From positions 64,001 through 128,000 of the forward strand of contig JAYKHS010000011.1 of NCBI GenBank assembly GCA_035285865.1: 64,000 nt of DNA. Reading direction: 5' to 3'. Each line of letters starts with the position of its first letter. The stretch's first letter is position 1. This document shows positions 2,465 to 62,033 of the stretch, in pieces. The DNA is from Candidatus Sericytochromatia bacterium. Lineage in GTDB: Bacteria; Cyanobacteriota; Sericytochromatia; S15B-MN24; VGJW01. The notes beneath the pieces are model-generated. The model had not been told where the DNA came from and made no database searches. It saw only the letters and a program-made list of their open reading frames with translations. Both the position numbers and the translations under genes were made by a program.

Positions 2465-2509
2465 CTTAACCTCATGTTGACGCAAGCTTGAGGCCATCAA
2501 AGCCGACAA
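2465..2509 (+). promoter_or_regulatory. Three 11-bp-period repeats (CTTAACCT/GTTGACGC/CTTGAGGC) followed by GCCGACAA (sigma28-like -10)
   Basis: Read directly in the intergenic region upstream of the phosphatase; similar elements at 23352-23406, 31360-31403 and 61990-62033. Confidence 0.55.
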
Positions 2510-2537
2510 GATCAGCGTGAACGAGAGGGAGTCGACC

Positions 2538-3248
2538 ATGAAGCCGTTTCGCGAGGCCCTGATGGTAACCTTGGCCACCACCCTGCTGGGGTGCGGTCAG
2601 GCACAGATGCCGTCGCTGGCGGCGCGGTCGGCCGCACAGCCCCAGGGCATGGCCACCATGTCCGCTGCGCGCCAGCAGGAACTGGCGCGACTCGACTCCG
2701 AAGAACTCACGGACAGCCCCCTAGGTGAAGTCCACGCCGACAGCCTGTGGCCCTCGCCACCGCCCGACGACCTCGGCAACGTCGGTGAAGTCGACGCTCA
2801 CCTGCTTCGCGGAGCCCGACCGACCGCCAGGGGCGTCCAGATGCTCAAGGAGCGTGGCGTGACCCACGTCATCTCCCTCGAAAATGCCAAGAAGGTCGTG
2901 GCTGCGGAAAAAGCCATGGTCGAGGGCGCCGGCATGCGCTTCACCAGCCTGCCGATGGGCCTGTTCATCCCGCCCGGCGAGGCCAAGGTGGACCGTTTCC
3001 TCGGCATGGTCCGACACGCCGACGGCGGCAAGACTTACTTCCATTGCATGCAGGGTCGGGACCGGACCGGCACGATGGCGTTGGCCTATCGGGTCCGCAT
3101 GCAGGGCTGGAGCTTCGACAAGGCGTACGCCGAGATGAAGCAGTTCGGCTTCCACACGTACTTGCTGGGCCTGAACGGCTTCGTGCGCTGGTACGGCAAC
3201 AAGTACGACCACTCGGACGTCGACGGGGCGATGCTTCCCGCCCTCTAG
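2538..3248 (+). CDS. Lipoprotein with a protein-tyrosine / dual-specificity phosphatase (CX5R) domain
   Basis: Lipobox LLGC after a short signal; catalytic loop HCMQGRDRTG; LLRGARP and VISLE motifs of small DSP-type phosphatases. Confidence 0.88.
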   Translation: MKPFREALMVTLATTLLGCGQAQMPSLAARSAAQPQGMATMSAARQQELARLDSEELTDSPLGEVHADSLWPSPPPDDLGNVGEVDAHLLRGARPTARGVQMLKERGVTHVISLENAKKVVAAEKAMVEGAGMRFTSLPMGLFIPPGEAKVDRFLGMVRHADGGKTYFHCMQGRDRTGTMALAYRVRMQGWSFDKAYAEMKQFGFHTYLLGLNGFVRWYGNKYDHSDVDGAMLPAL

Positions 3249-3258
3249 TCCACCGGGC

Positions 3259-3639
3259 TCAGGCGTACATGTCGATCTGACGGCCCAGGGGAGACTGCTG
3301 TTCTTCCTTGGGCAGTCTCGCGCGCAACAGTTCCGTGGCGGGTGCGGAGAGCGACACCAGGTAAGCCGGACCGGGGTCCGGGAGCCGACGACTGCGCGCT
3401 TCGCGTTCCTCATCGGCGACGATGCGGGCTTCCTCTGCCCTGCGCACCGCCTCGACCTCGCGCCGCTCGCGCAGACGAACCACGAGGCGCTCCCGGTCCT
3501 CGGCCTCAAGCCTGTCACGAACCTCCAGCTTGCGGGCTTCATCGCGCCGGGCCTGTGGCGTGCCGTAGCGCGGCTGGCTCTGTGCCTGCCACTGTGGCGG
3601 CACGACGGGCTCTTGCGAGCGCTCCACCCTTGCTTGCAT
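3259..3639 (-). CDS. Hypothetical charged coiled-coil protein ending in GRQIDMYA
   Basis: GGGGAG SD before ATG 3639; Arg/Glu-rich helix; C-terminal G-x-x-I-D-x-Y-A motif. The longer track start overlaps alaS. Confidence 0.6.
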   Translation of the reverse strand: MQARVERSQEPVVPPQWQAQSQPRYGTPQARRDEARKLEVRDRLEAEDRERLVVRLRERREVEAVRRAEEARIVADEEREARSRRLPDPGPAYLVSLSAPATELLRARLPKEEQQSPLGRQIDMYA

Positions 3640-3733
3640 CCGCGATGCTCCCCAGGTCATGGTACCCCGAAACCTGATCGGTTGGTCATCCCTGCTCTGG
3701 TACCATGCTAGGCCAGTACGGGAGGACAGCCCC

Positions 3734-6322
3734 ATGGCCCTGGCAGCAGCCGAGATCCGCAAGCGGTTCATCGCCTACTTCGAGGCACGTACGCATCGCA
3801 CGATGCCCAGTTCCTCCCTGGTGCCCCACAAGGATCCGACAGTCCTGCTGACGACTGCCGGCATGATGCCCTTCAAACCCTACTTCATGGGCCTCGAGAC
3901 GCCTCCGGCCACGCGCCTGACCTCCATCCAGAAGTGTTTCCGGACCACGGATCTCGACCAAGTGGGACGCACCGCCCGGCATCACACGTTCTTCGAGATG
4001 CTGGGCAACTTCAGTTTCGGCGATTACTTCAAGGCGGAGGTCATCCCGTGGGCCTGGGCCTTCCTGACCGAGGAGCTTGGCCTGCCCCGGGAACGCCTGT
4101 GGGTCACGGTCTACAAGGACGATGACGAGGCCGAATCCATATGGCACAAGACGTGTGGCATCCCGATGGAGCGGATTGTCAGGCTGGGAGACGACACGAA
4201 CTTCTGGGCTGCAGGCCCGACCGGACCGTGCGGACCGTGCTCGGAAATCTACTACGACCACGAGCCGGACCAACCGGCCTCGGCCGAGCGGTTCGAGGAG
4301 GATAGCGATCGAGGGCGCTTCCTCGAGGTCTGGAATCTTGTCTTCATGCAGTACGAGCGCCTGGCGGACGGCACCATGCGCGATCTGCCCGCGCGCAACA
4401 TCGACACCGGCATGGGCCTCGAGCGCATCGCCAGTGTCCTGCAGGGCGTGTCGAGCAACTACGAGACCGACCTGCTCATGCCGCTGATGCAAGCCGTCGC
4501 CGAGCGTGCCGGCAGGCCCGTCGACCTCACCGGCGAAACGGGAGTCGCTTTCCGCCGCATTGCCGACCACGCGCGCGCCAGCACCTTCCTGGTGGCCGAT
4601 GGCGTCGTTCCGGGCAACGAGGGCCGAGGCTACGTCCTGCGGCGCATCCTGCGCAGGGCCATCCGGCACGGACGCCAGTTGGGCATCACGGGCGCCTTCG
4701 TGCGGGACCTCGCCATCCGGGTGATTTCTGCCTATGGCCATCACTACGGCGAGCTGGTCGAAAAGCAGGCGACCATCCTGGAAGTTCTCGAGGCCGAGGA
4801 GGCGCGGTTCGGTACAACCCTCGACCGCGGGCTGCTGCTGTTCGAAAAGGCCATCGGACGGCTTGAGGGTTCGACTCTGTCCGGCGCAACGGCCTTCGAG
4901 CTTTTCGACACCTATGGATTCCCTGTCGAGCTCACGGCGGAGCTCGCTGCGGAGCGTGGCCTCGAAGTCGATCGTGCAGGTTTCGATGCCGCCATGGACG
5001 AGCAGCGCCAGCGTGCGCGTGATGCCCACGCCAAGGCCGGCATCACCTATGGTGGCTTGGCCATCGGCCAGCATCCTCCTACGCAGTTCGTCGGGTACGA
5101 CGCCACCGAGACCCGCGCACGTGTCCTCGAGATCGTGGAAGGCGACAGCGGCGCCATCATCGTGCTCGACCGCAGCCCGTTCTATGCCGAGGGCGGCGGG
5201 CAGGTCGGCGACCAGGGCACCCTGGCCGGCTTGCGCGTCGTCGACACCCAGAAACAGGGCGACGTCCACGTGCACCATGTCGCGGCAACCGAAGGGCTGC
5301 CCGGAGTCGGCGACGTCGTTGACGCGGTGGTGGATGACGCACGGCGCAAGGCCACCATGCGCCACCATACGGCCACCCACCTGCTGCATGCGGGTCTGCA
5401 CGCCGTTCTGGGGCCCACGGCGACCCAGGCAGGCTCCTACGTCGGTCCGGACGAGCTCCGTTTCGACTTCCAGTGGAGCCGCGCGATGACGGCAGAGGAA
5501 GTCATGGCAGTCGAAGACTGGGTCAATCAGGCCATCCTGACGGCAAGTCGGGTCAACCGTGCGGAGATGTCGATGGCGGAGGCCCGCGCCAAGGGAGCCG
5601 TGGCGATGTTCGGCGAGAAGTACGGTGAACAGGTCCGAGTGATCGAGGTACCTGGCCTCTCCACGGAGCTCTGCGGCGGAACGCACGCCACCTCGACCGG
5701 GGAAATCGGCTACCTCAAGATCACCGAGGAAAAGGGAATTGCTGCGGGAGTTCGTCGCATCCGAGCCGTGGCAGGCATGGCAGCCGTCCATTGGGTGCGC
5801 CAGCAGGCAGAGGTCGTCGACATCCTGCGCGACGGCTTCAAGGTATCCGTCGAGGCCCTGCCGGAGCGTGTCCAGAAGCTGCGCGATCAGGTCCGTGCCG
5901 CCGAAGATGCGGCGCAGGATCTGCGCGCCCAACTTGCCGTGAGTCGAGCATCCAGCCTCGCCTCGGACTTTGTCGAGGTCGCGGGCCTGCAGGTACTGGC
6001 TGCGAGGCTGGACGGTTGTGACGGAGCCGCACTCAGGACCTCGGCCATTGACCTTGGCAAGGGCGGACAGCCGCGGGTCGTGCTACTGGCCGGCGTATCC
6101 GCGGACCGGATACAGGCCGTGCTCGTGGCCAACTCCGAAGCCGTGGCACGGGGTGTGCACGCCGGGCAGTTGCTTGGTCAGGTTCTCACGCCCATCGGGG
6201 GCAAGGGCGGAGGCAAGCCCGATGCGGCACAGGGAGGCGGCGGAGACGCCGGTCTGCTGGAAGAGGCTCTGGCGAACTTCGGGACGCTGCTCGCCGGTCG
6301 TCTGGCACCGGCAGGAGCCTGA
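3734..6322 (+). CDS. alaS: Alanine--tRNA ligase
   Basis: AGMMPFKPYF, RHHTFFEMLGNFSFGDYFK, IDTGMGLER, editing motifs HTATHLLH and ELCGGTH, C-Ala GGKGGG; GGAGG SD at 3721. Confidence 0.99.
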   Translation: MALAAAEIRKRFIAYFEARTHRTMPSSSLVPHKDPTVLLTTAGMMPFKPYFMGLETPPATRLTSIQKCFRTTDLDQVGRTARHHTFFEMLGNFSFGDYFKAEVIPWAWAFLTEELGLPRERLWVTVYKDDDEAESIWHKTCGIPMERIVRLGDDTNFWAAGPTGPCGPCSEIYYDHEPDQPASAERFEEDSDRGRFLEVWNLVFMQYERLADGTMRDLPARNIDTGMGLERIASVLQGVSSNYETDLLMPLMQAVAERAGRPVDLTGETGVAFRRIADHARASTFLVADGVVPGNEGRGYVLRRILRRAIRHGRQLGITGAFVRDLAIRVISAYGHHYGELVEKQATILEVLEAEEARFGTTLDRGLLLFEKAIGRLEGSTLSGATAFELFDTYGFPVELTAELAAERGLEVDRAGFDAAMDEQRQRARDAHAKAGITYGGLAIGQHPPTQFVGYDATETRARVLEIVEGDSGAIIVLDRSPFYAEGGGQVGDQGTLAGLRVVDTQKQGDVHVHHVAATEGLPGVGDVVDAVVDDARRKATMRHHTATHLLHAGLHAVLGPTATQAGSYVGPDELRFDFQWSRAMTAEEVMAVEDWVNQAILTASRVNRAEMSMAEARAKGAVAMFGEKYGEQVRVIEVPGLSTELCGGTHATSTGEIGYLKITEEKGIAAGVRRIRAVAGMAAVHWVRQQAEVVDILRDGFKVSVEALPERVQKLRDQVRAAEDAAQDLRAQLAVSRASSLASDFVEVAGLQVLAARLDGCDGAALRTSAIDLGKGGQPRVVLLAGVSADRIQAVLVANSEAVARGVHAGQLLGQVLTPIGGKGGGKPDAAQGGGGDAGLLEEALANFGTLLAGRLAPAGA

Positions 6323-6328
6323 ACCGGG

Positions 6329-6372
6329 GAGCGGGGGGCCGACCTTGCGCGCGCAAGGTCGGCCCCCCGCTC
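6329..6372. terminator. Perfect 44-bp palindrome between convergent alaS and hppD (probable bidirectional terminator)
   Basis: GAGCGGGGGGCCGACCTTGCGC (6329-6350) is followed immediately by its exact reverse complement (6351-6372). Confidence 0.75.
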
Positions 6373-6376
6373 GTCG

Positions 6377-7504
6377 TCAGAGATTGCCGCGAGCTGCCTG
6401 ATCCCGCTCGATCGATTCGAACAGTGCCTTGAAATTTCCCTTGCCAAAGGAAGTGGATCCGCGGCGTTGGATGATTTCGAAGAACAGGGTCGGGCGGTCC
6501 TCGACAGGCTTCGTGAAGAGTTGCAGCATGTAGCCCTTGTCGTCGCGATCCACCAGGATGCCCAACGCCTTGAGCGCTTCGATGTCCTCTACGACCCCGG
6601 GCAGGCGATCGGCGATGGTGTCGTAGTAGCTGTCGGGCGTGTACTGGAAGGCCACGCCATTGGCGCGCAACGTCCTGACCGTGTGGACGATGTCATCCGT
6701 GGCCAACGCGATGTGCTGGACCCCCGGACCACCGTAGTAGTCCAGGTATTCCTGAATCTGGGAACGGCGCCGCCCTTCGGCAGGCTCGTTGATGGGCATC
6801 TTGATGCGTTCGTTGTGGTTGGCCACCACGACGGAACGCAAGGCCGAGAATTCGGTCGAGATATCCTTGTCGTCGAAATTGGCAAAGAAGCGGAAGCCGA
6901 AGACCCGCTCATAGTGCTGCTGCCACTCCACCATCCGACCATCCTCGACGTTGGTCACAACATGATCGACGTACTTCAGTCCGGCATCGGACAGGCCAAG
7001 CCCCTCGGCCGCCTGGAAACCGGGCAGGAAGGGCCCGGAGTAGGCAGAGCGCTCGACGAAGGTATGCAAGGTATCTCCCGCTGCTGCAATCGTCGCCACG
7101 ACGACCTCGCCGTTGCCGTCCGACAACACCTCAGGGTCGCGAACCGCGACGGCCCCCCTGCCGACGGCGGCAGCGAAGGATTGGCGAGCATCCGTCACCC
7201 AGAGCGCGACATCACGCACCCCATCGCCATGGAGCGCCTGATGCCGCACGACCGGATGATCGGGTGCAAGTCCGGTCGTCAGGACAAAGCGAATCTTGCC
7301 CTGCTGCAGGACATAGGAGGCCCGATCCCGCAAGCCGGTTTCCGGACCAGCATAAGCCACCAGCGAGAATCCGAAGGCTCGCTGATAGTAGTAGGCTGCC
7401 TGGCGGGCGTTGCCTACCCAGAACTCGATGTGGTCGGTACCGAGGATCTCGATGTCCGGCACGCGGTGGATGTCCACAGGCGCCACGTTTGCAGTCATGT
7501 CCAT
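6377..7504 (-). CDS. hppD: 4-hydroxyphenylpyruvate dioxygenase
   Basis: DHIEFWVGNA, HGDGVRDVAL, DHVVTNV, SQIQEYLDYYGGPGVQHIAL, FFEIIQRRGSTSFGKGNFKALFESIE. Confidence 0.97.
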   Translation of the reverse strand: MDMTANVAPVDIHRVPDIEILGTDHIEFWVGNARQAAYYYQRAFGFSLVAYAGPETGLRDRASYVLQQGKIRFVLTTGLAPDHPVVRHQALHGDGVRDVALWVTDARQSFAAAVGRGAVAVRDPEVLSDGNGEVVVATIAAAGDTLHTFVERSAYSGPFLPGFQAAEGLGLSDAGLKYVDHVVTNVEDGRMVEWQQHYERVFGFRFFANFDDKDISTEFSALRSVVVANHNERIKMPINEPAEGRRRSQIQEYLDYYGGPGVQHIALATDDIVHTVRTLRANGVAFQYTPDSYYDTIADRLPGVVEDIEALKALGILVDRDDKGYMLQLFTKPVEDRPTLFFEIIQRRGSTSFGKGNFKALFESIERDQAARGNL

Positions 7505-7594
7505 GGCCAGATCGTGGCATGCTCCGCAGGTCGAGGCAAGGCGAGAGCCAGCCCGAGCGGGTATGGATGCCAACATGTGGAGGTTTCTGGAAGC

Positions 7595-9472
7595 ATGACC
7601 CGACCCAAGCTTCGTCGCATCGCCGGCACCATGCTGGCAGTCAGTCTGATGGCCGCTGGCTGGGCCCGACCAGCCGATGCTTGCGGGGGATTCTTCTGTC
7701 GGACGCAACCGGTGGATCAGGCGGGCGAGAAGATTCTCTTCGTGACGGATGGAGAGCATGTGGATGCCACCATCCAGATCCAGTTCACGGGCCAGGCCAA
7801 GGACTTTTCATGGGTCGTGCCGCTGGCCCGCAGGCCACTGGCCTACGGCGTGAGTTCGGATGAGGTCTTCAGCCTGCTGGGGCGCAACACGATGCCGCGT
7901 TACCAACTTGATTGGCAGAAGCCTGAGGGCAACTGCCCCATCATGATGAATGACGCCGTGCGCGCCGAGGCGGGCGCCGTGCCCTTCGCGTCATCCCCCG
8001 GCGGCTCGGCCGTCACGGTCGTCGAAAAGGGCATCGTGGGGAACTACGACTTCACGCTGCTCGCCTCGAGCGACGCCGCCGAACTGGAGACGTGGCTCAA
8101 GGACAATGGCTACAACGTCCCGGCCGACTTTGACGAGAAAGCCCGGACCTACATCGATGGGAAGTTCGTGTTCCTTGCCCTCAAATTGCTCGAGGGCAAG
8201 ACCACCGGAGACCTGCAGCCCATCCGCCTGAAGCTCGACGAGCAGAACCCCTGCGTGCCGATTCGCCTGACGGCCATTGCCGCGCGCCCGGACATGCCGA
8301 TCATCCTGTATGCCTTCGGCTCTGGTCGGGCCATTCCACGAAACTATCGGCACGTCCGCCTGAACGAGAGCCTGCTGGATTGGGTCGGGGCCTCTCCCCA
8401 ATTCGGCGGATTCTTCCCCGGCGGTTCCCCGAGCCTGCCGACACCCAACTACAACGAGGTCGTCAACAAGTCCATGAACGAGTCCGGCGGCCGAGGCTTC
8501 GTCACCGAGCTCGCCACGGGAAGCGCTGACCTCGTGGGCATCCTTGCGAACAGAGCGACAGCCTATCGGCCCGCAGACATCGCGGCGGCCAAGACGGCTC
8601 GAGCAGCCATCGAGGCCGTGCAGGCCCAAGGCTACCCTGTCGGAATCGCGCTGCAGGCCATCGTCGACAGGCACCTGCCGCCCCAGGCTGCCAGCGAGGC
8701 CTGGACCCTGCTCAATGGCCGGTCGTTCATCGGACCGGTGCCGACTGAGCCGGACGGCCTCAATCCGGGGCTGGACGCCGCCACCCTCGATGTCGCTTCC
8801 TTCTCTGCGGACATCGACGCCATGTTCGCCAAGCCCATGCGGGAGGCTGCCGAGCTGGCCGGTCGAGCACCGTGGGTCACCCGGCTGTACACGACCATGT
8901 CTGCGGACGAGATGACCGAGGACCCGATCTTCGGTTTCAATCCCCGCCTGCCACAAGTCAGCAATGTCCACCAAGCAGAGGCCACCCCGATCTGCACGGA
9001 TGGTCTGTACACCGTTCGGATCAAGCTCGAGGACGGGACGGTCTTCACGGCCCGTCAGGGCAGCCTGCCGCCGATCGCGGAAATCCCGGCGGCAGCAGTC
9101 ATCGAGATGCTCGATGAGGATGCTGCGACCCCGACGCTGGTCTCCGACCGCGGGCCCGTCATCCGGGCAGCCTTGGCTGATTGGCAAGCTGGCAAGCCCA
9201 TCGGTACCACCGTGGCCGAGCCCATCACTTCGGCCACGATGCCGGCAGGTTCCGGTGCGGGAGGTTCGGCCCCGGCATCTGCAACATCCGGCGCTTCGTC
9301 GGACACGGCGAAGCCCGCTGTCGCAGCCGTACCGGGCTGCGCCTGCACCAACCCTGTCCGGACGGCGGTGGACACGACGCAAGCTGACCGGGAGGGTGCC
9401 TTCTGGGGCTTGTCCTTCGGAATCGTGGCCGCCGTGCGCCTTCGGCGTGCGCGCCGCCGGCGTCGGGACTGA
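7595..9472 (+). CDS. DUF2330-like secreted protein with a C-terminal Cys + TM + poly-Arg tail
   Basis: Signal peptide then ACGGFFC...VDQAGEKILF, FSWVVPL, WLKDNGY, FLALKL, PIRLTAIAA, TRLYTTMSADEMTEDP. The first 376 aa of track ORF 6467 are the antisense shadow of hppD. Confidence 0.85.
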   Translation: MTRPKLRRIAGTMLAVSLMAAGWARPADACGGFFCRTQPVDQAGEKILFVTDGEHVDATIQIQFTGQAKDFSWVVPLARRPLAYGVSSDEVFSLLGRNTMPRYQLDWQKPEGNCPIMMNDAVRAEAGAVPFASSPGGSAVTVVEKGIVGNYDFTLLASSDAAELETWLKDNGYNVPADFDEKARTYIDGKFVFLALKLLEGKTTGDLQPIRLKLDEQNPCVPIRLTAIAARPDMPIILYAFGSGRAIPRNYRHVRLNESLLDWVGASPQFGGFFPGGSPSLPTPNYNEVVNKSMNESGGRGFVTELATGSADLVGILANRATAYRPADIAAAKTARAAIEAVQAQGYPVGIALQAIVDRHLPPQAASEAWTLLNGRSFIGPVPTEPDGLNPGLDAATLDVASFSADIDAMFAKPMREAAELAGRAPWVTRLYTTMSADEMTEDPIFGFNPRLPQVSNVHQAEATPICTDGLYTVRIKLEDGTVFTARQGSLPPIAEIPAAAVIEMLDEDAATPTLVSDRGPVIRAALADWQAGKPIGTTVAEPITSATMPAGSGAGGSAPASATSGASSDTAKPAVAAVPGCACTNPVRTAVDTTQADREGAFWGLSFGIVAAVRLRRARRRRRD

Positions 9473-9478
9473 CGCCAG

Positions 9479-13318: not shown

Positions 13319-13327
13319 CGCGCGACC

Positions 13328-22468: not shown

Positions 22469-23311
22469 CTAGAACTGTGCCGGTACCGGCTGCTGCGCCA
22501 CGCTTTCAGGCGTGAGGGCGAGCAGGACCTGCGCCGTGTCCCTGCGACGGATGGTCACCTTGTCCCGCAAACCCAGGCGATAATCGGCGCTCCGCGCCGT
22601 AACCTCGTAGGCACCGGCCTCGAGGCGTCCGATACGGAACAGCCCCTGTCGGTCGGCGCGGGCCCGCCAGATTCGGCCATTACCGAACGACCGCACCGTG
22701 ACCTCGGCAAGGGGCAGGACGACCAAGGAGCGCGCGTCATAGACCTTGCCCGCCATGCGCCCCTTGGACAGCAGGTCCCAGACGGCCCCGAAGTCAGGCA
22801 GACGTACAATGCAAGCCGTGACCAGCGTCTCTCCCTGCAGCCTGCCGCGAACCACGACCTTGCTGTTGAGACGTTGCGCAAGCAGGAGGCGTCCTTGCTC
22901 GTCACGACCCGCGAGGGGAATCGCCGCTTCTTTCTTCCACCAGAGCGAACCCTTGCGAATCTGCAGGAAGAACCGACCGTCTTCGTTGGACCGGATGAAG
23001 CCCACTCGGGTCATGCGCTTGCCCTGCGGCTCGGACGCCGTGGCCTCTGGCGACATGATATCGCCCTGCTCGGCGGCGAGGTCCGCGAGATCGGCCTCGT
23101 CGATCTCGTCCATGTCAGTCTGGAGGTTCAGGACCTCCATGTTTGCCTCGGGACCAACCTCGGCATCCCGCGCCCCGAACACGGGCTGGGAGGCGGTCGG
23201 CACCTGGGAGCGTGCCGCGAGGCTTGCCTGCGGGGCAACCTGACCGCAGCCCACGACGGCCAGCACCACCGCCATCGCCGCCAGTCGCGGGAATGCAACG
23301 CGAACAAACAT
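22469..23311 (-). CDS. Lipoprotein with a C-terminal carboxypeptidase-regulatory-like beta-sandwich
   Basis: Lipobox VVGC; acidic linker; GRMAGKVYDA...ADRQGLFRIGRLEAGAYEVTAR. Confidence 0.8.
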   Translation of the reverse strand: MFVRVAFPRLAAMAVVLAVVGCGQVAPQASLAARSQVPTASQPVFGARDAEVGPEANMEVLNLQTDMDEIDEADLADLAAEQGDIMSPEATASEPQGKRMTRVGFIRSNEDGRFFLQIRKGSLWWKKEAAIPLAGRDEQGRLLLAQRLNSKVVVRGRLQGETLVTACIVRLPDFGAVWDLLSKGRMAGKVYDARSLVVLPLAEVTVRSFGNGRIWRARADRQGLFRIGRLEAGAYEVTARSADYRLGLRDKVTIRRRDTAQVLLALTPESVAQQPVPAQF

Positions 23312-23351
23312 GAAGAACCCCCCGGGCCCAAGGAAGCCTGTAACTGCTTTC

Positions 23352-23406
23352 CTATCGCCGCGGGGGGTGCCGGACGGGGTAAATCCCTTGATAAGCCTTC
23401 GTTAAG
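23352..23406 (-). promoter_or_regulatory. Three 11-bp-period repeats (CTTAACGA/CTTATCAA/ATTTACCC) plus GGCGATAG
   Basis: Minus-strand reading upstream of the 23311 start; the last repeat starts 25 nt before GGCGATAG. Confidence 0.55.
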
Positions 23407-30792: not shown

Positions 30793-31326
30793 TCAACGAA
30801 CCGGCTTGCCAACCTCGTCGTCGAACAGGTCACCCAGGGCCGTCACCAGCGTGCCCGCAGTAACGGCCACCATCCCGGGCACGAGGCCTACGGCCGGCAC
30901 GAACGCGACGACCCCGCCACCCACCTGGATGGCATCGCCGGCGACCCGCAGGGCATCATCCCACTTGCGCACGTTCGCCGGGCCATCGAAGCCCTTGCGG
31001 AAACGCTCGTACAAGGAGTAACCGGCAAATCCGCTCGACAGGGCAGGGGTCAGCTTGCCCAGAAGAAAACCCGCCGGCTTCCCGGTGGCGACGACCTTGG
31101 CCGCCTGTCTGAGGGTAATGCCATTGAACAGAGTGGACAGACCGGCGCCGATGCCGACGCCGATGCGGTGGCCGCGCCGAATGACTGCCTGCTCCTCACG
31201 CGAGGGGGCGCTGAGGCTGACCCGATCCCGGGACGGTTCGACGGTTCGAGGCGGTTGCGACGCGTCGGGGACAACCTGCGCGCTTGGCGCGACAGGCACC
31301 TTGCGCGCTGCCTGGACTGACGGCAT
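30793..31326 (-). CDS. Hypothetical protein: disordered N-terminus, DRVSLS motif, Gly-rich hydrophobic segments
   Basis: ORF fills the gap between dnaE and trkA; GAGGGGG SD before ATG 31326. Confidence 0.7.
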   Translation of the reverse strand: MPSVQAARKVPVAPSAQVVPDASQPPRTVEPSRDRVSLSAPSREEQAVIRRGHRIGVGIGAGLSTLFNGITLRQAAKVVATGKPAGFLLGKLTPALSSGFAGYSLYERFRKGFDGPANVRKWDDALRVAGDAIQVGGGVVAFVPAVGLVPGMVAVTAGTLVTALGDLFDDEVGKPVR

Positions 31327-31359
31327 GACCACCCCCTCGCCCCCCCAGGGCATGGTGGT

Positions 31360-31403
31360 TCATCGTGCAGGCGCAATGGCGAGGTTCTTGTCTCGGGGTT
31401 AAG
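31360..31403 (-). promoter_or_regulatory. CTTAACCC/GACAAGAA 11-bp-period repeats plus CACGATGA
   Basis: Same 25-nt spacing as at 23352 and 61990; the second repeat is a weak match. Confidence 0.4.
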
Positions 31404-31475
31404 TTTTCTTGATTCTTGATCGACAAGCGTCGGAACCCTCGACGGCCCGCGGGGCCGGGTGTAACGTAAGGCCGC

Positions 31476-50386: not shown

Positions 50387-50387
50387 A

Positions 50388-54592: not shown

Positions 54593-54593
54593 G

Positions 54594-56093
54594 TCAGGGG
54601 GCGGTCTTGACCCGCCTGACCCGATTGGCAGAGAAATCCGTAATCAGGATATCGCCCGTCGCATCCACGGCGAGGTAGGTCGGAAGAGCGAGTCGCCCTG
54701 CAGCAAGGGGCACGGGTCCATCAGGCTCGGTGGCAGGTCCCGGTCCGGCAAGGCGGTGAACGAGGCCCGTGTTCCTGTCGAACAGACGAAGGCGGGCGAG
54801 TGTGGGCTCGAGGAAGACAAGATGACCCTCCGGAGTCACGGCCATGGAGCTGGCCTTGAACACGCTGGCTTGAAGGCCCGGCAGGCCATCGCCCTGATCC
54901 ACCTGGCTCTTGACGTCGGTGCTGGCGCTATAAGGGGTACGAGGCCCCTCGCCAATCATCGGATACACCCGACCGGCTGTCCGCCGACCACCAAAGCCCT
55001 CGATGTCCTGAAGGCAAACCAGCATGATCCTCGCGACACTCAAGGACTGGGTGGTGCTGTCCTGTTGCGTCAGCAGCTGGGTGGACACCTCACTGAACCA
55101 GACATTGCCGTCGGGATCCACGTGTGGCGCTGACGGCCCGGCAATCGGTGCCTCCGCCAGCAGCGCACCCTCCTCACCAATCAGTCCGGTTGCCGAACCG
55201 CTCCCTGCAAGGACGACCACGGCCCCATCGAGATTCAGGCGATAGAGGTACCGATGGGCGGTAATGCTCGCCTTGTTCTGATTGACGACCGTGAAGACAA
55301 GCGTCCCATCCGGGGCGGCTGAAAGGCCATTGGGCTTGCCCAACTCGGCAGGCAGGGGGACCACATGCGCCTTGCCCGCCTCGAGGTCCAGACCATAGGC
55401 ACGACCCGATGCAACGGGCATCAGCAGAAGCTGGCCGGACCCGTCGACAACCCACACGGAACCATCGGGGGAAACGGCCACCTCGGCAGGAACCGCGGAA
55501 GCCGTCGTGCCCAGAAGGCGGACTTCAGCCTGATTGACCGGCACTCCTGGTGCCGCAGGCGTTCCGGGCACCTGACCCGCCCAAGTCGCTGCCACTCCGT
55601 GATCGTCGACACGGATGACACCGTGGCCACGGTCAAGAACCAGCCCTCGACCATCCGGCAGAAAGGCCACATTCGTCGGTTTGCTCAGGTAGGCAGAAGC
55701 CACTGGCAGACCATCGCCCAGCATCCCGCCCGGGGCATCCGCCGCCCCGTTCTCGATACCGCTGCCGAAGCCGGCCGCCACGGTCCAGAATGCAGCCGGC
55801 GCCCACGCCTGCTGCCTGGCCGGGGCGACCGCCGGAGTGGGGCCAGGTGTAGGCTCAGGCGTTGCTGCCGGGGTAGGTTCGGGAGTCGGCACCGGGCTAG
55901 GGGTAGACTCAGGCGTTGGTGCCGAGGAAGGCTCGGGAGACATGGACGCAGACGCCACGCCCGATGCCGACGGCACCGACGTTGCCTGAGCAAGGGTGGT
56001 GATCCGCTGCAGCAGCGCCCCGTCCGAGCACGCGACCAGCACGGCAAGCGCCAAGGGCGCAGCGATGAAAGTTACCGAACCAAATTTACGCAT
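54594..56093 (-). CDS. NHL-repeat lipoprotein with a Pro/Thr/Glu linker
   Basis: Lipobox LVAC; PTPE repeats; GDGLP...LSKPTNVAF, PTYLAVDATGDILITDFSANRVR. Confidence 0.85.
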   Translation of the reverse strand: MRKFGSVTFIAAPLALAVLVACSDGALLQRITTLAQATSVPSASGVASASMSPEPSSAPTPESTPSPVPTPEPTPAATPEPTPGPTPAVAPARQQAWAPAAFWTVAAGFGSGIENGAADAPGGMLGDGLPVASAYLSKPTNVAFLPDGRGLVLDRGHGVIRVDDHGVAATWAGQVPGTPAAPGVPVNQAEVRLLGTTASAVPAEVAVSPDGSVWVVDGSGQLLLMPVASGRAYGLDLEAGKAHVVPLPAELGKPNGLSAAPDGTLVFTVVNQNKASITAHRYLYRLNLDGAVVVLAGSGSATGLIGEEGALLAEAPIAGPSAPHVDPDGNVWFSEVSTQLLTQQDSTTQSLSVARIMLVCLQDIEGFGGRRTAGRVYPMIGEGPRTPYSASTDVKSQVDQGDGLPGLQASVFKASSMAVTPEGHLVFLEPTLARLRLFDRNTGLVHRLAGPGPATEPDGPVPLAAGRLALPTYLAVDATGDILITDFSANRVRRVKTAP

Positions 56094-56154
56094 TATAAAA
56101 AAGTGTAACAGATGGCAACACACCGGACGGGCGACATGACACGCATCCGCCAGC

Positions 56155-56183
56155 TTGATCTACAGGTCAAATAATGTCATACT
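56155..56183 (+). promoter_or_regulatory. sigma70-type promoter TTGATC-N17-CATACT overlapped by the dyad TTGATC-TACA-GGTCAA
   Basis: AT-rich divergent intergenic region; TG at 56175-56176 gives an extended -10. Confidence 0.55.
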
Positions 56184-56186
56184 GAT

Positions 56187-57848
56187 ATGAGATACCATGC
56201 TGAGCTGGACTTGAGCAGTACCGCCACGGGGATTCATTTGTCTCCGATTGACATCATCCCGCTGGGGCCCTTGCTGGCTGTCGGCTCCTTGGGTTTGGCA
56301 ATTCTTGTTGCCGTGGACGAGTTGCCTGCATCCCCGGTCAATCTCGGGACCCTTCGGCATCTTGCAGAGCAAGCGCTCCGGCGTCACTTCTCTGCTGGCA
56401 TCAGAGTTCACGGACCCAACCTGCATTCGGCATCCGAGTGGTCCTGGCTCGGGACCACGATTGCCGAGCTTGCCGCGGAAACCGTGCAAGTTGCGAGCGA
56501 CGGCCGCGAGGCAGGCTCGACCGCTGACTTCTCCATCGTGAAGATTGCCGATTCGAAGGCCACGCTCTGGCCTGATCATCCGCTGGCGCAACCGCAAGAC
56601 GACCAAGGATGGCAGCAGTTCAGCGACACCGCCGTGCGGCTCACACGACTCGGAGCGTGGGCGGAATCGCTCGGCGATACGCGATGCCTTGATGAAGTCA
56701 TTGCAATCTGGCGCTTGCATCCGCCAGCGGCGACCAACAACGAGCTCATGCCGCTGATTGCAGCAAGGCGGGAACTCGCGTGCGGCAATCCTGCCGAAGC
56801 GTGGGAAATGCTGGACCGGTGGCAGCCCAGCGCACGGGCAGTACGTCGCAGCCGCTGGCTGGCCATGGTCAAAATCCTGGAGTTCCTTGGTGACTATCAG
56901 GCTGCGAGTGGCCTCCTCGACCTCGCCGAACGCCTGTCGGACCCCAAGGACTGGGAGGTCCGGGCACACAGGGCAGTCCTGCAACTCAGGCTCGGCCACC
57001 TGGATGATCTGGCTGCATCCCCGTTGCCCGACGACAACGCCGAGCGTATCCCCGACACCGTTGAATCGGCGATGTGGGCGTCGACTGTCGGCATCGCATG
57101 TTTCCGCCTCGGACGCTACCGGAACGCCATCGCGTGGCATCAATTGGCTCTGTCGGTCAGGAATCGGCTCGGGGACCTTGTTGCCGTGGCGAGAAGCTGG
57201 AACAACATCGGCAATGTCCACATCGAGTCCGGTGCCTTTGATGAAGCGCGCGAGGCCTTTGAAATGGCCGAGTCCCTGCTCGCGCAAGCGGGAGAAGTCG
57301 TGCTCAGAGCGACGGTAGCCAACAATCTTGGCAGCCTGCTGCTCCTCACTGAACGATTCGACGAAGCCAGAACAACCGTTTCACGCGCTTTCGATCTCAA
57401 GGAGGCCTCTGGCGAAGCACCAGGGCGCGCAATCGCCCAAGCGACTTTGGCGGCCATCGAGCTCGGTGCAGGCAATCTTGAGGAAGCGAGGAGGTATCTC
57501 TGGGACGCTCGCATCACGATTGAATCCTGTGGGCTTGAAGAGAACTTGCCGGATGTCGGGATTCTGGATGCAGAGCTCGCGCTGGCAGAAGGCGCCCATG
57601 AAAGGGCTGGCAAACTGCTTCTGGATCTACTTGCATGCGTCGAGGCGAGTCGACCGACGTTGTTGCCTCGCATCCATCGGGGGCTGGCCCGGGTCGCACA
57701 CGAGATGAGCCAGCACTCAAGGACCGACCACCATCTGTTTCAGGCCCTGCGCGCATCAGGGAACAGCGAGCGCCGCCACGAGCACTCGCGAACGCTTGCG
57801 CTTGCCGCGAAGCTCGGACGTCCCCTCGAGGACGCAGATGGCGCATGA
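56187..57848 (+). CDS. TPR protein with MalT/STAND-type TPR repeats
   Basis: ARSWNNIGNVH, ATVANNLGSL, AIAQATLAAI; N-terminal region unrecognised; start uncertain. Confidence 0.75.
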   Translation: MRYHAELDLSSTATGIHLSPIDIIPLGPLLAVGSLGLAILVAVDELPASPVNLGTLRHLAEQALRRHFSAGIRVHGPNLHSASEWSWLGTTIAELAAETVQVASDGREAGSTADFSIVKIADSKATLWPDHPLAQPQDDQGWQQFSDTAVRLTRLGAWAESLGDTRCLDEVIAIWRLHPPAATNNELMPLIAARRELACGNPAEAWEMLDRWQPSARAVRRSRWLAMVKILEFLGDYQAASGLLDLAERLSDPKDWEVRAHRAVLQLRLGHLDDLAASPLPDDNAERIPDTVESAMWASTVGIACFRLGRYRNAIAWHQLALSVRNRLGDLVAVARSWNNIGNVHIESGAFDEAREAFEMAESLLAQAGEVVLRATVANNLGSLLLLTERFDEARTTVSRAFDLKEASGEAPGRAIAQATLAAIELGAGNLEEARRYLWDARITIESCGLEENLPDVGILDAELALAEGAHERAGKLLLDLLACVEASRPTLLPRIHRGLARVAHEMSQHSRTDHHLFQALRASGNSERRHEHSRTLALAAKLGRPLEDADGA

Positions 57849-59392
57849 TGAACGGCTTTGACCTCCGGGACGGAGTCTTCCTTGCCTCCCTCTTGCGGCA
57901 TCTGGAAAGCGATAGCTGGCAAGAGGCCGCGTGGTTCCAAGACGTCGCGGAGATCACGCAGGCCGAAGCGGCGCACTACGATGCGTCCGGGGACCTCCGG
58001 CTCGTTTCCGTCCCCCGAGGCGACGGGGCCAACACGAGTCAGCTCCCCATCCCAGCCTCACTTCCGGTCGGGTCCGATGCCTGGTGCATCTTGCCGTTGG
58101 ATCAGGGTGAGTACCTTGCGGTGGCGACACGAAGCCCAATGGGAGAGGGCATGCACGCTGCCATCAGAGTCATGGTGGCCCTCCGTCGGCAGGCCTTGGC
58201 GGGACGGCCGGAACCGCAGTTGCCTGATGCCCCTTGGGCTCAGGCAGGTCGGCTGCTGTCGCGGGGACGGTTCGACTCACTCGGCCTGACGCCTCTGCTG
58301 GTCTTGGCATGCAGAACGCTTGGTGCGGTGGATGTCCTGGTCCTGTCTTCGACGGAGGAAAATCGTCTTGATGTCGTTGCCCGCGCCGGTGGTGCGGAGG
58401 CAACGTTAGCGGAGGCACCGACCACCACCACCGGACGCACGGCCTGGGTGGACAGCCTGCTGGACTCGGCGCGTGTGCGCTTCACGCGGGGGGCCAGTGC
58501 CATCGAAAGAGAGTTGCCAGGCCTTGAATGCCTCGGCCAGGTCGGTCTCACCCTCTGGCATCCCCTGAGGCGCCGCGGAAGCCATGTTGGCATGGTGCTC
58601 GTCATCTGGGATGACGAGGCCGAACTGGACAGTATCCGCAGTCGATGGCTGGGGAGCCTCGCAGACCTGCTACAACTGCTATTCGAGCACTCGGCCATAT
58701 CTCGGGAACTGCAACATACCCGCCTGACCGTCAGGCAGCATGAGTCGAGAACCGGCGAGGATCAGGCCTTCGTCAAGCAGTTGCTTCACGACTTGCGCAA
58801 CGAAGTGCACGCGCTGGCGCTCCTCGCGGACGATATGCATCAACTGGCAACCCAGCAAGCCGAAGTCGAGACGACGGAGAGCCTGGTGCGGCAGGTTCGA
58901 TGCATGTCAGGTTACCTTGGCCAGGTCGGTCGCAATTGGCAGGATGGTCGGGCGTGGAACGAATCCGCCGGCTTGCAGGTGGCCGACATCTTGAGCAGAG
59001 CCCTCCAGATGGAACCCGCGCTTCAAATGGTCACGACGGATGATGCCCAGTCAGTCGAGCTCCTTTGTCCGCGTACTGTTGCGAACGATCTCGTCGCGGT
59101 CCTCCTGCAAGCGATGGAATCCATCGCACCGGGACACAAGCCGCGCCTCTCGACCCTGCTTACGGCAGGGTGGCTGACACTTGCCGTCGACACACCGGAT
59201 CTGCAACTCGCCGCTCATCCGTCGGGAATCGTGCGCTTGTCTCCACGGCATTTCGGGATGGCCGCAGCAGAGGCCATCTCCATGGTCGAAGACCTCTGCG
59301 TTGCGCACGGCTTCCAGTTCGGTGTCCGCTTGCATCCAGGACATCCACCCCGCCTGCATGCCTCGGTACGCACGGAGTCGTGGGGCCAGTAA
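57845..59392 (+). CDS. GAF domain plus degenerate histidine-kinase-like protein
   Basis: PLRRRGSHVGMVLV GAF strand; H-box-like LLHDLRNEV; no recognisable N/G1/G2 boxes; ATGA coupling to the TPR gene. Confidence 0.6.
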   Translation: MMNGFDLRDGVFLASLLRHLESDSWQEAAWFQDVAEITQAEAAHYDASGDLRLVSVPRGDGANTSQLPIPASLPVGSDAWCILPLDQGEYLAVATRSPMGEGMHAAIRVMVALRRQALAGRPEPQLPDAPWAQAGRLLSRGRFDSLGLTPLLVLACRTLGAVDVLVLSSTEENRLDVVARAGGAEATLAEAPTTTTGRTAWVDSLLDSARVRFTRGASAIERELPGLECLGQVGLTLWHPLRRRGSHVGMVLVIWDDEAELDSIRSRWLGSLADLLQLLFEHSAISRELQHTRLTVRQHESRTGEDQAFVKQLLHDLRNEVHALALLADDMHQLATQQAEVETTESLVRQVRCMSGYLGQVGRNWQDGRAWNESAGLQVADILSRALQMEPALQMVTTDDAQSVELLCPRTVANDLVAVLLQAMESIAPGHKPRLSTLLTAGWLTLAVDTPDLQLAAHPSGIVRLSPRHFGMAAAEAISMVEDLCVAHGFQFGVRLHPGHPPRLHASVRTESWGQ

Positions 59393-59446
59393 TCACATCG
59401 GATGCCGGCTTGTCCGCCGGGCTTGCTGCGGGGTAGGATGCCCGCC

Positions 59447-60691
59447 ATGACTCCAAAGGAAGCCGCCGAAGCCCGGATCGGCCGTGCGGAGGAACGCCTC
59501 GAGGACACCTTCAGGGCCATTCGCGCCACGGAATGGGCCAACACCCGAAGAGTCCTGGAGGCCTTTCAGGCCGCACGTGTCGGTGAAGAACACTTTGCCG
59601 GGACAACGGGCTATGGCCATGACGACCTCGGCAGGGAGTGTCTGGACACCGTCATGGCCACGGTCCTGGGTTCTGAGGCTTCCCTTGTACGAGGCAGCAT
59701 CGCCTCCGGTACTCATGCCATTGCCTTGGCGCTCTACGGTGCGCTTGCACCGGGCCGAGAGTTGCTATACATCACGGGACACCCCTACGACACGCTGGAG
59801 GAAGTCATCGGCCTTCGGGGAGGCGGGCAAGGCTCCTTGATGGAGTGGGGTGTCGGCTATCGGGAGATCGATCTGCTGCCGGACGGCCAGATAGACCTCG
59901 CTGGCTGCCTCGCGGCCATTTCGGACAAGACTGCTGTCGTGGCGATCCAGCGTAGCCGGGGTTATGCATGGAGGCCGTCCCAGTCCATTTCGCGGATTGA
60001 AGAAGCCATCAGCACGCTACGGAAAGCCCACCCGCATCTGGTCTTCTTCGTCGACAACTGCTACGGCGAATTCGTCGAAGACCGCGAGCCAACCCACGTC
60101 GGAGCCGATCTCATCGCGGGTTCGCTCATCAAGAACCCGGGGGCCGGCATCGTGCCAGCGGGTGGTTATGTGGCGGGCAGGGCCGATCTGGTGCACCGAG
60201 CGGCCTGCCGACTTACCGCCCCGGGAATAGGTGCAGCCGGCGGAGCGACGCTGGATTCGCTCCGGCTCATGTTCCAGGGACTCTTTCTGGCTCCCCACGT
60301 GGTTGCCGAAGCCGTCATGGGTGGAGTTCTCGCTGCTGCGGTCCTCGAGGAGATGGGGCATTCCGTCGATCCGGCTCCCACGGATCTGCGCACCGACATC
60401 ATCCAGGCGGTACGGCTCGGCTCGGCGGAACGCCTCGTGACCTTCTGCCAGACCGTGCAGCGTACCTCGCCCATCCACGCGCACGTCACCCCGGAGCCCG
60501 CAGTTGTTCCGGGCTACGCCGATCATGTGGTGATGGCCGCGGGAACGTTCATCGAAGGCTCCACCATCGAGCTCTCGTGTGACGGCCCCTTGCGTCCACC
60601 CTACGTCGCGTACTGGCAGGGAGGGCTCAGCTACGGCCATGCACGAGAAGCCTTGGTTCGCGTGTGCAAAGCTCTGGACCAGTTGGCATGA
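59447..60691 (+). CDS. PLP-dependent methionine gamma-lyase family protein (YnbB / aluminium-resistance type)
   Basis: GTTGYGHDDLGR, SGTHAI, PYDTLEEVIG, IQRSRGY, VDNCYGEF, GSLIKNPG, AGTFIEGSTIELSCDGP. Confidence 0.93.
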   Translation: MTPKEAAEARIGRAEERLEDTFRAIRATEWANTRRVLEAFQAARVGEEHFAGTTGYGHDDLGRECLDTVMATVLGSEASLVRGSIASGTHAIALALYGALAPGRELLYITGHPYDTLEEVIGLRGGGQGSLMEWGVGYREIDLLPDGQIDLAGCLAAISDKTAVVAIQRSRGYAWRPSQSISRIEEAISTLRKAHPHLVFFVDNCYGEFVEDREPTHVGADLIAGSLIKNPGAGIVPAGGYVAGRADLVHRAACRLTAPGIGAAGGATLDSLRLMFQGLFLAPHVVAEAVMGGVLAAAVLEEMGHSVDPAPTDLRTDIIQAVRLGSAERLVTFCQTVQRTSPIHAHVTPEPAVVPGYADHVVMAAGTFIEGSTIELSCDGPLRPPYVAYWQGGLSYGHAREALVRVCKALDQLA

Positions 60692-61134
60692 CTGGCCCCA
60701 GGATTCGACTTGGCGCAGTCCTGATTGAAAGTGGGCGACTCCTGCTGGTCCGCCATCGCAAAGAGGCGCGTACCTATTGGTTACTGCCAGGTGGCGGCCT
60801 GGAGTGCGGTGAGAGCATCGCCGAAGGACTCAAGCGCGAAGTCCGGGAAGAGACCGGATATGAAGCGGAATTTTCTCGGATTCTGGCGCTTGTCGAGACT
60901 CGGGCACCAGACGCCACGCGCCACATCATCCATGTGGTCGCCCTGATGATCCTCGGAACCAAGGGGGAGCGGAGCGATACCGATCCGAGACTGGATGGCC
61001 ACGAATGGTTCCGCGCAGCAGACCTCGAAGGACTCGATCTGCGTCCTGCGGTCAACGGCTGGCTTGCATCAGGTCTGTGCGAGGGCTGGTCGGACAGCGC
61101 GACCCACCTCATACCCGACTGGATTAACGACTAG
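60688..61134 (+). CDS. Nudix hydrolase
   Basis: Nudix box GGGLECGESIAEGLKREVREETG; ATGA overlap. Confidence 0.92.
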   Translation: MTGPRIRLGAVLIESGRLLLVRHRKEARTYWLLPGGGLECGESIAEGLKREVREETGYEAEFSRILALVETRAPDATRHIIHVVALMILGTKGERSDTDPRLDGHEWFRAADLEGLDLRPAVNGWLASGLCEGWSDSATHLIPDWIND

Positions 61135-61232
61135 AATAGTTATCCAAGTAAATCATAAACCCAGCACGACAGTGATCTTGCGAATTATTTTGACCAGCTC
61201 AGGCACTCAGCAAGGATAAAGATTAACCTCAC

Positions 61233-61982
61233 TCAAGATTTCAGTGAGACACCAATATTCCACTGCCGGAAGCTCATGAAGCGAGCCAGTTGGTCTGCAG
61301 TCACCGCAAGGGGTCCCTGCATCGAGTAGGGATCATTGATGATGAAACGATCGCCCTGAAGACCACTGACGAGAATGAAGTGGCCTCCGTCGAAAGGAAC
61401 GTACTGCTGGGGACTCAGGCCAGCATTGTACGCAGCAGGATTACCTGCCAGAACGATCAGTTCACCCTGTCTGACGGCCTGCTCCACGGCTGCCGGAGAC
61501 TCGACGTAACGAGTCTTGAGACCAACCGCCTCGGCACCACGCCGCACATCGACTTCACTGGTGAGTTCGAAGGGATCCTGCCGCCCCGTCATGGCCTGGC
61601 GCACCTGCATGACAAGCGCCTGACGATTGACCTGTGCGGGGACACGATGCAGGGCAAGCAGGGCCATCGCGAGAGAAGCCGGACCACAATTGGCCGTCGA
61701 GGAAGGCGCGTCCGGGTTGTAGCGCGGGTGGCGGACCTGGGCCACGAAGAACCGCTCGGGATCCCCAGCAGGCAGAACAACACCCGCAGACTGCGAACCG
61801 GGAACCCCTTGACCAACTGCCTTGTGACGCGCCGCGAGGCGCTCCAGAAGGTCCAGTCCCTCCTGCCGGTCTCCGGGCATCGAAGGCATCGCGGGAGTCG
61901 AAGGAACAGCACCACCCAAGGGCGTAGCCAAGCGCCCGAGGATACTTGAGGCGGAACCCTGTTGAATATATGGAGGCGTCAC
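61233..61982 (-). CDS. C39-like cysteine peptidase with a disordered N-terminus
   Basis: Q...NCGPASLAM, GHFILVSG, INDP (Cys-His-Asp). Confidence 0.85.
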   Translation of the reverse strand: MTPPYIQQGSASSILGRLATPLGGAVPSTPAMPSMPGDRQEGLDLLERLAARHKAVGQGVPGSQSAGVVLPAGDPERFFVAQVRHPRYNPDAPSSTANCGPASLAMALLALHRVPAQVNRQALVMQVRQAMTGRQDPFELTSEVDVRRGAEAVGLKTRYVESPAAVEQAVRQGELIVLAGNPAAYNAGLSPQQYVPFDGGHFILVSGLQGDRFIINDPYSMQGPLAVTADQLARFMSFRQWNIGVSLKS

Positions 61983-61989
61983 CAGATTA

Positions 61990-62033
61990 TTGTCGCCCGG
62001 AGAAGGCTCGCTCGTGGTTAACGGGTGGTCAAG
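61990..62033 (-). promoter_or_regulatory. CTTGACCA/GTTAACCA 11-bp-period repeats plus GGCGACAA
   Basis: The second repeat starts 25 nt before GGCGACAA, upstream of the C39-like gene. Confidence 0.55.

Follow-up and report, generated by a model that had tools for sequence, protein, structure and literature searches.

A class of putative sigma28-type promoters with SphR-like direct repeats in an uncultured Sericytochromatia genome

The 64,000-nucleotide window analyzed here (contig JAYKHS010000011.1, positions 64,001 to 128,000) holds four members of a promoter class that occurs about 50 times in its genome, that of a “Candidatus Sericytochromatia” bacterium (here, G000). Promoters of this class, here called composite, have three CTTnAC repeats with an 11-bp period, followed by an SSCGAYAA octamer that resembles the -10 element of sigma28 promoters. 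It is fairly likely that these ~50 promoters are turned on by a SphR/PhoB-like regulator that, bound to the repeats across the -35 position, recruits RNA polymerase carrying FliA, the flagellar sigma factor. The Sericytochromatia are an uncultured, non-photosynthetic sister lineage of cyanobacteria. The G000 assembly comprises 2.82 Mb (67% GC, 82.7% complete), with no small-subunit (16S) rRNA gene assembled, so that its taxonomic placement relies on relatives of its proteins. Gene calls were made with our own hexamer caller, with some starts misplaced and some genes missed, so that target lists are approximate. All scores are natural-log odds; the half-site matrix was tied and scored against the local AT background.

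Genome-wide, TTAAC has a one-mismatch partner most often at -11 and +11 nt (25 and 27 cases, compared with 0 to 9 at other offsets), with 14 and 11 cases at -22 and +22. A half-site matrix (consensus CTTAACC(T/G)) found period-11 pairs in 47 of 1485 upstream regions, a count that includes the 32 seed pairs (first iteration, threshold 8), and pairs in 1 to 6 regions at periods 7-10 and 12-16. Scanning of the whole genome for half-site pairs gave 131 matches, 13 of them in called coding sequence, and merging left 106 intergenic arrays. With the window sites left out, a CGAYR follows the last repeat at 24 to 26 nt in 12 of the 103 arrays and at 35 to 37 nt in 9 of them, while 48 other offset triplets have a mean of 1.7. 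Viewed from the octamer, CTTNA[CG] counted around 1325 intergenic CGAYR anchors peaks at -24 (12), -35/-36 (7, 7) and -46 (12) over about 2 elsewhere, and two control anchors gave flat profiles. The usual unit has three repeats, the last of which starts 24 to 25 nt before the octamer. A model of three repeats plus octamer had 43 intergenic matches scoring above 14 in-sample, where the wrong settings gave 0 to 4 (four wrong spacers), 8 (a shift by one repeat) and 0 (periods 10 and 12). When the model was trained on half of the contigs and tested on the rest, 34 and 19 sites were found, compared with 1-14 and 1-4 for six wrong settings. Fifty distinct composite sites score above 11.2, and in tandem gene arrangements 30 of 31 aim at the downstream gene. 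A first-pass annotation, which had only the window, proposed a two-part motif of this kind; genome-wide, repeat and octamer are indeed enriched, and their spacing is fixed relative to wrong-spacer controls.

It is very improbable that the pattern merely follows as a by-product from AT-rich promoter DNA or from the usual sigma70 -35/-10 elements, or that it is a LexA box. TTGAC does resemble a sigma70 -35, one strong box precedes lexA, and two unconstrained expectation-maximization motif searches, both dropped, drifted to AT-rich DNA and to start codons, respectively. The signal is specific for period and spacer under a local-composition background, and these controls refute a by-product unless the counts in relatives (see below) are an artefact. 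A sigma70 promoter was rejected on the -7 position, where T is found at only 7 of 41 sites, and a LexA box because recA lacks the repeats; recA and lexA carry their own GAAC-N4-GTTC-like sites. Beyond the composite class, about 50 further genes have repeats without the octamer (here, box-only). A fixed downstream element was looked for in these and not found; the same regulator would control them via a different polymerase.

Column counts over 41 octamers are G28 S39 C35 G39 A39 Y41 A34 A27 (GCCGATAA-like). In the cited sections of a study of Pseudomonas aeruginosa, the sigma28 promoter is given as a -10 element (-15)GCCGATAA(-8) and a -35 element (-36)TCTAAAG(-30) (PMC12784957). By this numbering, transcription is expected to start 15 nt past the first base of the octamer. 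A purine occupies this column, which lay outside the columns of the composite model, at 36 of 41 sites, compared with 52% of 1300 control anchors (p = 8e-7), and at 23 of 27 sites in relatives (one site per relative). There is a pyrimidine-purine step at 27 of the 41 sites, and at 9 an ATG or GTG begins exactly there, which suggests leaderless messages. No consensus sigma28 -35 was seen, in that intergenic CGAYR anchors show no T[CA]AA[GC] peak at -19/-20. With its start expected at -39/-40, the proximal repeat would overlap the -35 position; a loose -35-like word is present in 14 of 41 proximal repeats versus 2 and 9 in the other two repeats. The promoters of flagellin, flgM-like and flgF genes, on the other hand, have CT(A/C)AAG 20 to 21 nt before a GCCGA-type octamer and composite scores near zero, and a -35 element is present at seven flagellar-type promoters. 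The genome therefore appears to have two classes of sigma28-type promoters, (i) flagellar ones with a -35 and no repeats and (ii) the rest, with repeats and no clear -35.

The sigma factor reading the composite -10 is quite probably FliA, whose gene (C22:93464-94261) passes the TIGR02479 FliA/WhiG cut-off. This FliA keeps a DELR..DW.PR segment, as do nearly all of the 19 FliA rows among those listed; in this segment we take the E. coli residue numbers to be D81, R84 and R91. The last arginine of this segment may be R97, the conserved arginine that, in the cited sections, reads the extended -10 GC (PMC12784957).

A second FliA-derived sigma (C26:115412-116134; L007:1438-2157) lies inside one of two flagellar-type export systems of G000. 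System 1 (C22:98528-121868 and C5:60022-68521) has motor, hook, flagellins and FliA, with no L/P-ring genes found. System 2 (C26:110934-121515 [L187], C22:4145-10739, C5:42817-45548 and C28:60040-61317) comes with a sigma of its own, L/P rings and a short hook. Its FlhA was found in all five genomes tested; in one of them, G030, no other FlhA was seen. We regard it as unlikely that the second sigma reads the composite -10 and that targets without a signal peptide are late secreted substrates of its export cluster, although the idea accounts for several observations: the gene sits among flgF-G-A-H-I and flgB-C-fliE-fliF-flhA, composite and flagellar -10 elements differ at position 6, and nonlipoprotein targets have a compositional bias in their N-termini (Pro/Ala/Ser/Gln/Thr/Asn fraction 0.405 versus 0.352, p = 0.001) and more often carry a D-x-hydrophobic-x-hydrophobic-S motif (5/36 versus 41/1320). 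The second sigma, however, lacks the FliA region 2.4-3.0 arginines and most of region 3, which is replaced by a Pro/Lys- and acid-rich linker, while regions 2.4 and 4.2 are nearly invariant. It occurs in 44 of 47 class genomes, including genomes without the composite, and it has the same DNA-reading regions in families f6 and f7, in which no composite was seen; in the six f7 genomes it is the only one of the two sigmas found. A weak further point is that it was not found in the composite-bearing genomes G004 and G023, weak because both assemblies are broken in that cluster.

The four sites in the window are middling members of the class, with log-odds of 9.2, 13.5, 9.5 and 15.1 under a model trained without them (top sites reach 20 to 27). 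Their elements and genes are as follows.

2465..2494, + strand: site 1 repeats, three at an 11-bp period, starting at 2465, 2476 and 2487; kept in G001-G003
2502..2509, + strand: site 1 sigma28-type -10 octamer GCCGACAA; predicted +1 at 2517 (C/G step), from the numbering in PMC12784957
2538..3248, + strand: dual-specificity/PTP-type phosphatase lipoprotein (Pfam PF22741/PF00782); open reading frame (ORF) opens at GTG 2517
23377..23406, - strand: site 2 repeats, three, starting at 23406, 23395 and 23384
23352..23359, - strand: site 2 -10 octamer GGCGATAG; predicted +1 at 23344; kept in G003 (L141)
22469..23311, - strand: lipoprotein with CarboxypepD_reg beta-sandwich domain (Pfam PF13620)
31385..31403, - strand: site 3 repeats, starting at 31403 and 31392, with a weak third at 31414; kept in G001-G003
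31360..31367, - strand: site 3 -10 octamer CACGATGA; predicted +1 at 31352-31353, with an ATG at 31353
30793..31353, - strand: site 3 hypothetical protein, Pro/Ala-rich N-terminus followed by a hydrophobic part; start at 31353 or 31326
62015..62033, - strand: site 4 repeats, starting at 62033 and 62022
61990..61997, - strand: site 4 -10 octamer GGCGACAA; predicted +1 at 61982, where the GTG of the ORF begins
61233..61982, - strand: C39-like peptidase (Pfam PF13529); start at 61982 or 61889; no recognizable signal peptide

All of the motifs that the first-pass annotation had reported in these four unlinked intergenic regions are present where it placed them, and its distance of 25 to 26 nt from repeat to octamer was measured as 26 nt at site 1 and 25 nt at each of the others (octamer-aligned). 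Its gene labels hold by Pfam; its description of the products as exported is borne out in part, since the site 3 and site 4 proteins lack a recognizable signal peptide and are putatively secreted at most. Likewise, the set of four genes rests on real sites and is a small part of a far larger regulon that includes many proteins without signal peptides. In orthologous promoters, boxes, octamer and spacing are kept while the spacer sequence changes. The site 1 and site 3 promoters are kept in all three same-genus genomes, at 26 and 25 nt, respectively, and for site 2 a single orthologous promoter was seen (G003, L141), which keeps them too. Of the site 1 orthologues farther away, 16 were compared; most do not preserve the 24-26 register, and several have the octamer 28 to 29 nt from a repeat. 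Site 4 is degenerate (GGCCACAA) in the two close orthologues found, while among homologues of its peptidase promoters score 15 to 23 in three and 17.6 in one under the composite model. The site 1 phosphatase has orthologues in 27 of 28 genomes searched. The site 3 protein was present in three of five relatives searched, all three of the same genus; it has no Pfam family, and its ESM Atlas matches are all below 0.9.

The repeats point to a regulator of the SphR type. In the cited sections, SphR acts as an activator at arrays of three or more tandem 8-bp CTTAACCT repeats with an 11-bp period (PMC1906773), and the likeness to the SphR Pho box noted in the first-pass annotation extends to both half-site consensus and period. 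As a positive control, a Cyanobium locus was scored, in which the half-site matrix gives 10.3 for the box preceding pstS. The candidate regulator is an orphan at C22:38558-39247 whose recognition helix (KTVDVHIRWLREK) is identical to that of cyanobacterial PhoB/SphR-type proteins. Its best NCBIfam match is TIGR02154 PhoB (273.9 bits; the cut-off of 296.2 is not reached), and a quick tree (53 rows, a chosen subset of loci) places it as sister to the cyanobacterial PhoB/SphR clade with an approximate likelihood ratio (SH-aLRT) support of 88. It is 76 to 99% identical in 42 of 47 class genomes, and its nearest named relatives are from a “Ca. Sericytochromatia” bacterium (77%), Cyanobacteria bacterium UBA7694 (75%) and Cyanobium (54%). 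A regulator in L041, a record titled as a Bordetella parapertussis metagenome-assembled genome (MAG), groups with Cyanobium and is probably from a mislabelled bin.

The same architecture could be served by another activator, either an OmpR-family paralogue at C26:51320-52036 or the RpaB orthologue, and we consider this unlikely but worth weighing. The paralogue is 57% identical to the C22 regulator, is found class-wide, and has a near-identical helix (RTVDVHIHWLREK) and an adjoining PAS histidine kinase as its putative cognate. Its best NCBIfam match is YycF/WalR-like, below the cut-off, and WalR controls wall hydrolases through 11-bp repeats. However, at two positions its helix departs from the cyanobacterial PhoB/SphR type, which the C22 protein matches at both; the paralogue falls outside the PhoB/SphR clade in the quick tree; and the box consensus is that of SphR. 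The RpaB orthologue itself (L013:1057-1785; G000 C32:11118-11849) scores 330.8 bits, just over the cyanobacterial RpaB cut-off of 330, in a non-photosynthetic host. The C22 regulator remains our candidate.

The mechanism we propose is that the phosphorylated C22 regulator would bind the repeats head-to-tail at about -61, -50 and -39 and would activate rather than repress. The proximal repeat would lie where a -35 is expected; as that element is degenerate or absent, FliA would need the activator at these promoters, just as sigma70 needs PhoB at Pho boxes. Flagellar genes would use activator-free FliA promoters. The arrangement would form an AND gate, in which pili and lytic proteins are made when FliA is free of FlgM and the regulator is phosphorylated. 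An OmpR-family activator acting with a sigma28-type polymerase had been suggested by the first-pass annotation, which asked for genes of both kinds to be sought; both proteins are encoded in G000, and period, spacing, orientation (30/31), the purine at the expected start (36/41) and the lack of T at -7 all fit.

The composite is conserved in relatives, all of the class genomes searched being MAGs of 64 to 100% completeness. A loose pattern tuned on G000 (TT-N9-TT-N9-TT-N23/24-CGAYAR) has 433 matches in 28 genomes (this order and G027), 13 of them in G000, compared with 22 for an 18/19 spacer and 30 for the pattern read backwards in the same genomes, which are kin and not independent samples. 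A stricter pattern gave 110 matches versus 14 reversed in these 28 genomes. In 13 genomes of families f6 and f7, the loose pattern showed no signal (155 versus 148); in 80 genomes from the rest of the phylum, composite matches were mostly 0 to 2 (maximum 4), the same as controls, and in cyanobacteria the pattern was not above control. The bare repeat pair nevertheless has period 11 in 23 of 53 cases in f6/f7 (four genomes), where one in five is expected, and in 6 of 6 in G016.

Given the SphR-like box and regulator, the system could still be a Pho regulon, in which phosphate limitation induces phosphatases, nucleases, phospholipases and lytic enzymes that free organic phosphate. The targets do include the dual-specificity phosphatase, endonuclease I, three phospholipase D-like proteins (PLDs) and a NAGPA-family protein. 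We hold this to be quite unlikely. Neither PstB nor full-length PhoU exceeded its cut-off in any of the 47 class genomes (controls 13/14 and 12/14, respectively), the PhoU-domain matches in 6 of the 47 all being in frames of 534 amino acids or more, and G000 has no PF12849 and no PhoU match. PF12849 matches occur in 7 of 41 genomes, and the three strong ones have no adjacent box; by a MILATTTST-type motif or by their neighbours, we take these three to be tungstate-binding proteins. A pstSCAB-phoU set preceded by boxes was thus not found in the class genomes searched, and proteases, wall-lytic proteins and pili outnumber phosphate enzymes among the targets. That a SphR-type regulator is kept at high identity where core Pho targets were not found would be a clear case of regulon rewiring in a neighbour of the cyanobacteria. 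The output is most likely a contact-lysis programme (predation or scavenging) of a motile cell rather than a phosphate-starvation response.

This reading draws on the targets. Thirty-nine of the 50 composite targets were scanned, and 16 have a Pfam family. The wall-related ones are an amidase with LysM, a putative amidase, a glucosaminidase, three peptidoglycan-binding proteins and two C39-like peptidases (one with LysM); the others are two subtilases, a papain-like protease, a PLD, a NAGPA, a CarboxypepD, a BNR and a DUF4332 protein. For two targets of no known family, the ESM Atlas gave no match of at least 0.9. Signal-less proteins in this output are the amidase, the glucosaminidase and the C39-like and peptidoglycan-binding ones, and the lipoproteins in it include proteases and lipases. 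One composite site heads a complete Tad operon (Flp, A24 peptidase, TadE, RcpC, secretin, ATPase and two TadB/C), which may be co-transcribed from it, and another precedes a second Flp pilin. Among 39 of 53 box-only targets scanned are six subtilases, two M14 peptidases, two PLDs, endonuclease I, an amidase and a peptidoglycan-binding protein, along with several housekeeping enzymes, some of which are probably false positives. G000 has 33 subtilase-like and 8 PLD-like genes in 2.8 Mb. Lipoproteins are enriched (11/47 composite and 23/53 box-only versus 95/1385 others), and in relatives the genes downstream of composites again encode lipoproteins or proteins with low-complexity N-termini.

The mechanism may hold while the output serves the cell itself, in envelope remodelling, attachment or development under a WalR- or CtrA-like master regulator; this is possible, though we lean away from it. 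Such a role agrees with the boxes that precede lexA and dnaA and with the weak composite ahead of a dnaX-like gene, as it does with the lipoproteins and the fact that Tad pili are often adhesive. CtrA of Caulobacter is an OmpR-family master regulator with a TTAA-N7-TTAAC box (11-bp period) that controls Flp pilin and works with sigma70. It is not the nearest family here, the NCBIfam CtrA model reaching 154 bits for the RpaB-like protein only, among the matches listed. Against a role in the own cell, many wall-lytic targets have no Sec signal, and 9 of 15 ORFs with wall-related domains have a composite, compared with 12 of 500 random genes, although 9/15 is an overstatement because targets served as the seeds and at least one peptidoglycan-binding member escaped the search. 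Moreover, the combination of Tad pilus, export apparatus and FliA matches two known predators (see below). In its fullest form, which we put forward tentatively and with some doubt, the preferred reading is that the Pho regulator of one order, uncoupled from phosphate transport, has been wired to the flagellar sigma as a two-input predation switch that would deploy a Tad pilus and about two dozen signal-less wall-lytic or membrane-active proteins through the second, flagellum-derived apparatus.

Several observations weigh against the regulator, the sigma or the output that we prefer. (i) For the regulator, no kinase gene lies beside the C22 locus, the quick tree has many long branches, and the C26 paralogue or the RpaB orthologue could read a similar box. 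(ii) Flagellar -10 elements are of the GCCGAWG type and composite ones SSCGAYAA, a difference that leaves room for a second FliA-like sigma. (iii) Family f6 has FliA and a SphR-like regulator yet no composite, with no length peak by eye, and the stricter pattern gave 12 matches versus 29 reversed in 19 f6/f7 genomes. (iv) As for the output, 23 of the 39 composite targets scanned have no Pfam family; most members of the hydrolase families lack a box, which is present at 8/33 subtilases, 3/8 PLDs and 2/5 M14 peptidases (background 102/2443); and the hook operon of system 2 has no composite outside this genus, with the octamer in 2 of 27 upstream regions.

Compared with the SphS-SphR (PhoR-PhoB) Pho regulon, the system shares the activator type, the recognition helix and the array of at least three tandem CTTAACCT boxes at an 11-bp period, as given in the cited sections (PMC1906773). 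It differs in having about 100 targets, mostly pili, proteases, wall-lytic proteins and unknowns, half of them coupled to a sigma28-type -10, with no PstB or PhoU found in the 47 class genomes and no adjacent kinase. Activator-dependent sigma28 promoters are rare in print. CRP acts on those of aer and trg in E. coli, described in the cited sections as one of few such cases (PMC2859248). There, as is predicted here, an activator works directly on sigma28 polymerase at a fixed distance, but at two promoters, from a palindromic site at -49.5 and with a TAAAG -35 that is needed (PMC2859248). Here, the class comprises about 50 promoters per genome, conserved in 28 genomes, with direct repeats over the -35 position and no consensus -35, so that a PhoB-type direct-repeat activator would be used in place of the -35. 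In the literature searched, with most subscription papers and supplements outside the search, we found no report of PhoB/OmpR-family activation of sigma28 promoters, nor, within the same limits, of Sericytochromatia promoters, their type III export or this regulon. Because E. coli or in vitro systems could serve for tests of the mechanism, no culture of the organism would be needed.

Of the predators, Bdellovibrio bacteriovorus has an attack-phase FliA regulon that likewise extends sigma28 to surface proteins, proteases and a Tad/flp operon needed for predation (PMC3627812, PMC5430801). It belongs to a different phylum, and its FliA promoters carry a -35 (TTAAG-N16-CCGATA) and respond in E. 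coli to FliA by itself; the cited sections of both papers describe no activator that uses upstream repeats (PMC3627812, PMC5430801). Myxococcus xanthus combines a Kil (Tad) pilus and a type III secretion system that has no needle (T3SS*) in one cell for contact killing and lysis, according to the cited sections (PMC12075869). The second apparatus here is instead flagellum-derived, with rod, hook and L/P rings, and has a hook operon without a composite; a link between it and the Tad pilus or these targets would be hypothetical. The promoter motif picks out co-regulated, mostly unannotated proteins and predicts the lifestyle of an uncultured group; were the predation reading true, it would let the weapons of a predator that has not been cultured be listed from the genome.

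Two further patterns were seen. A GGG-TAYRAT-type element, probably a housekeeping -10, precedes 73 mixed genes in G000 (also L218-L240 and L384-L413), and at both the second hook operon and the SphR-like gene it often has GGTTAAG, a reversed half-box, ~21 nt upstream. A SigB/SigF promoter (GGTTAAG..GGGTA) linking these two was rejected, as GGGTA-type sites precede 73 mixed genes and have no -35 partner. The boxes of lexA and dnaA and the weak composite of the dnaX-like gene, names that we take to be right from the sequences, are at C25:21045 (-), C20:29420 (-) and C14:46005 (+), respectively, and hint at replication control.

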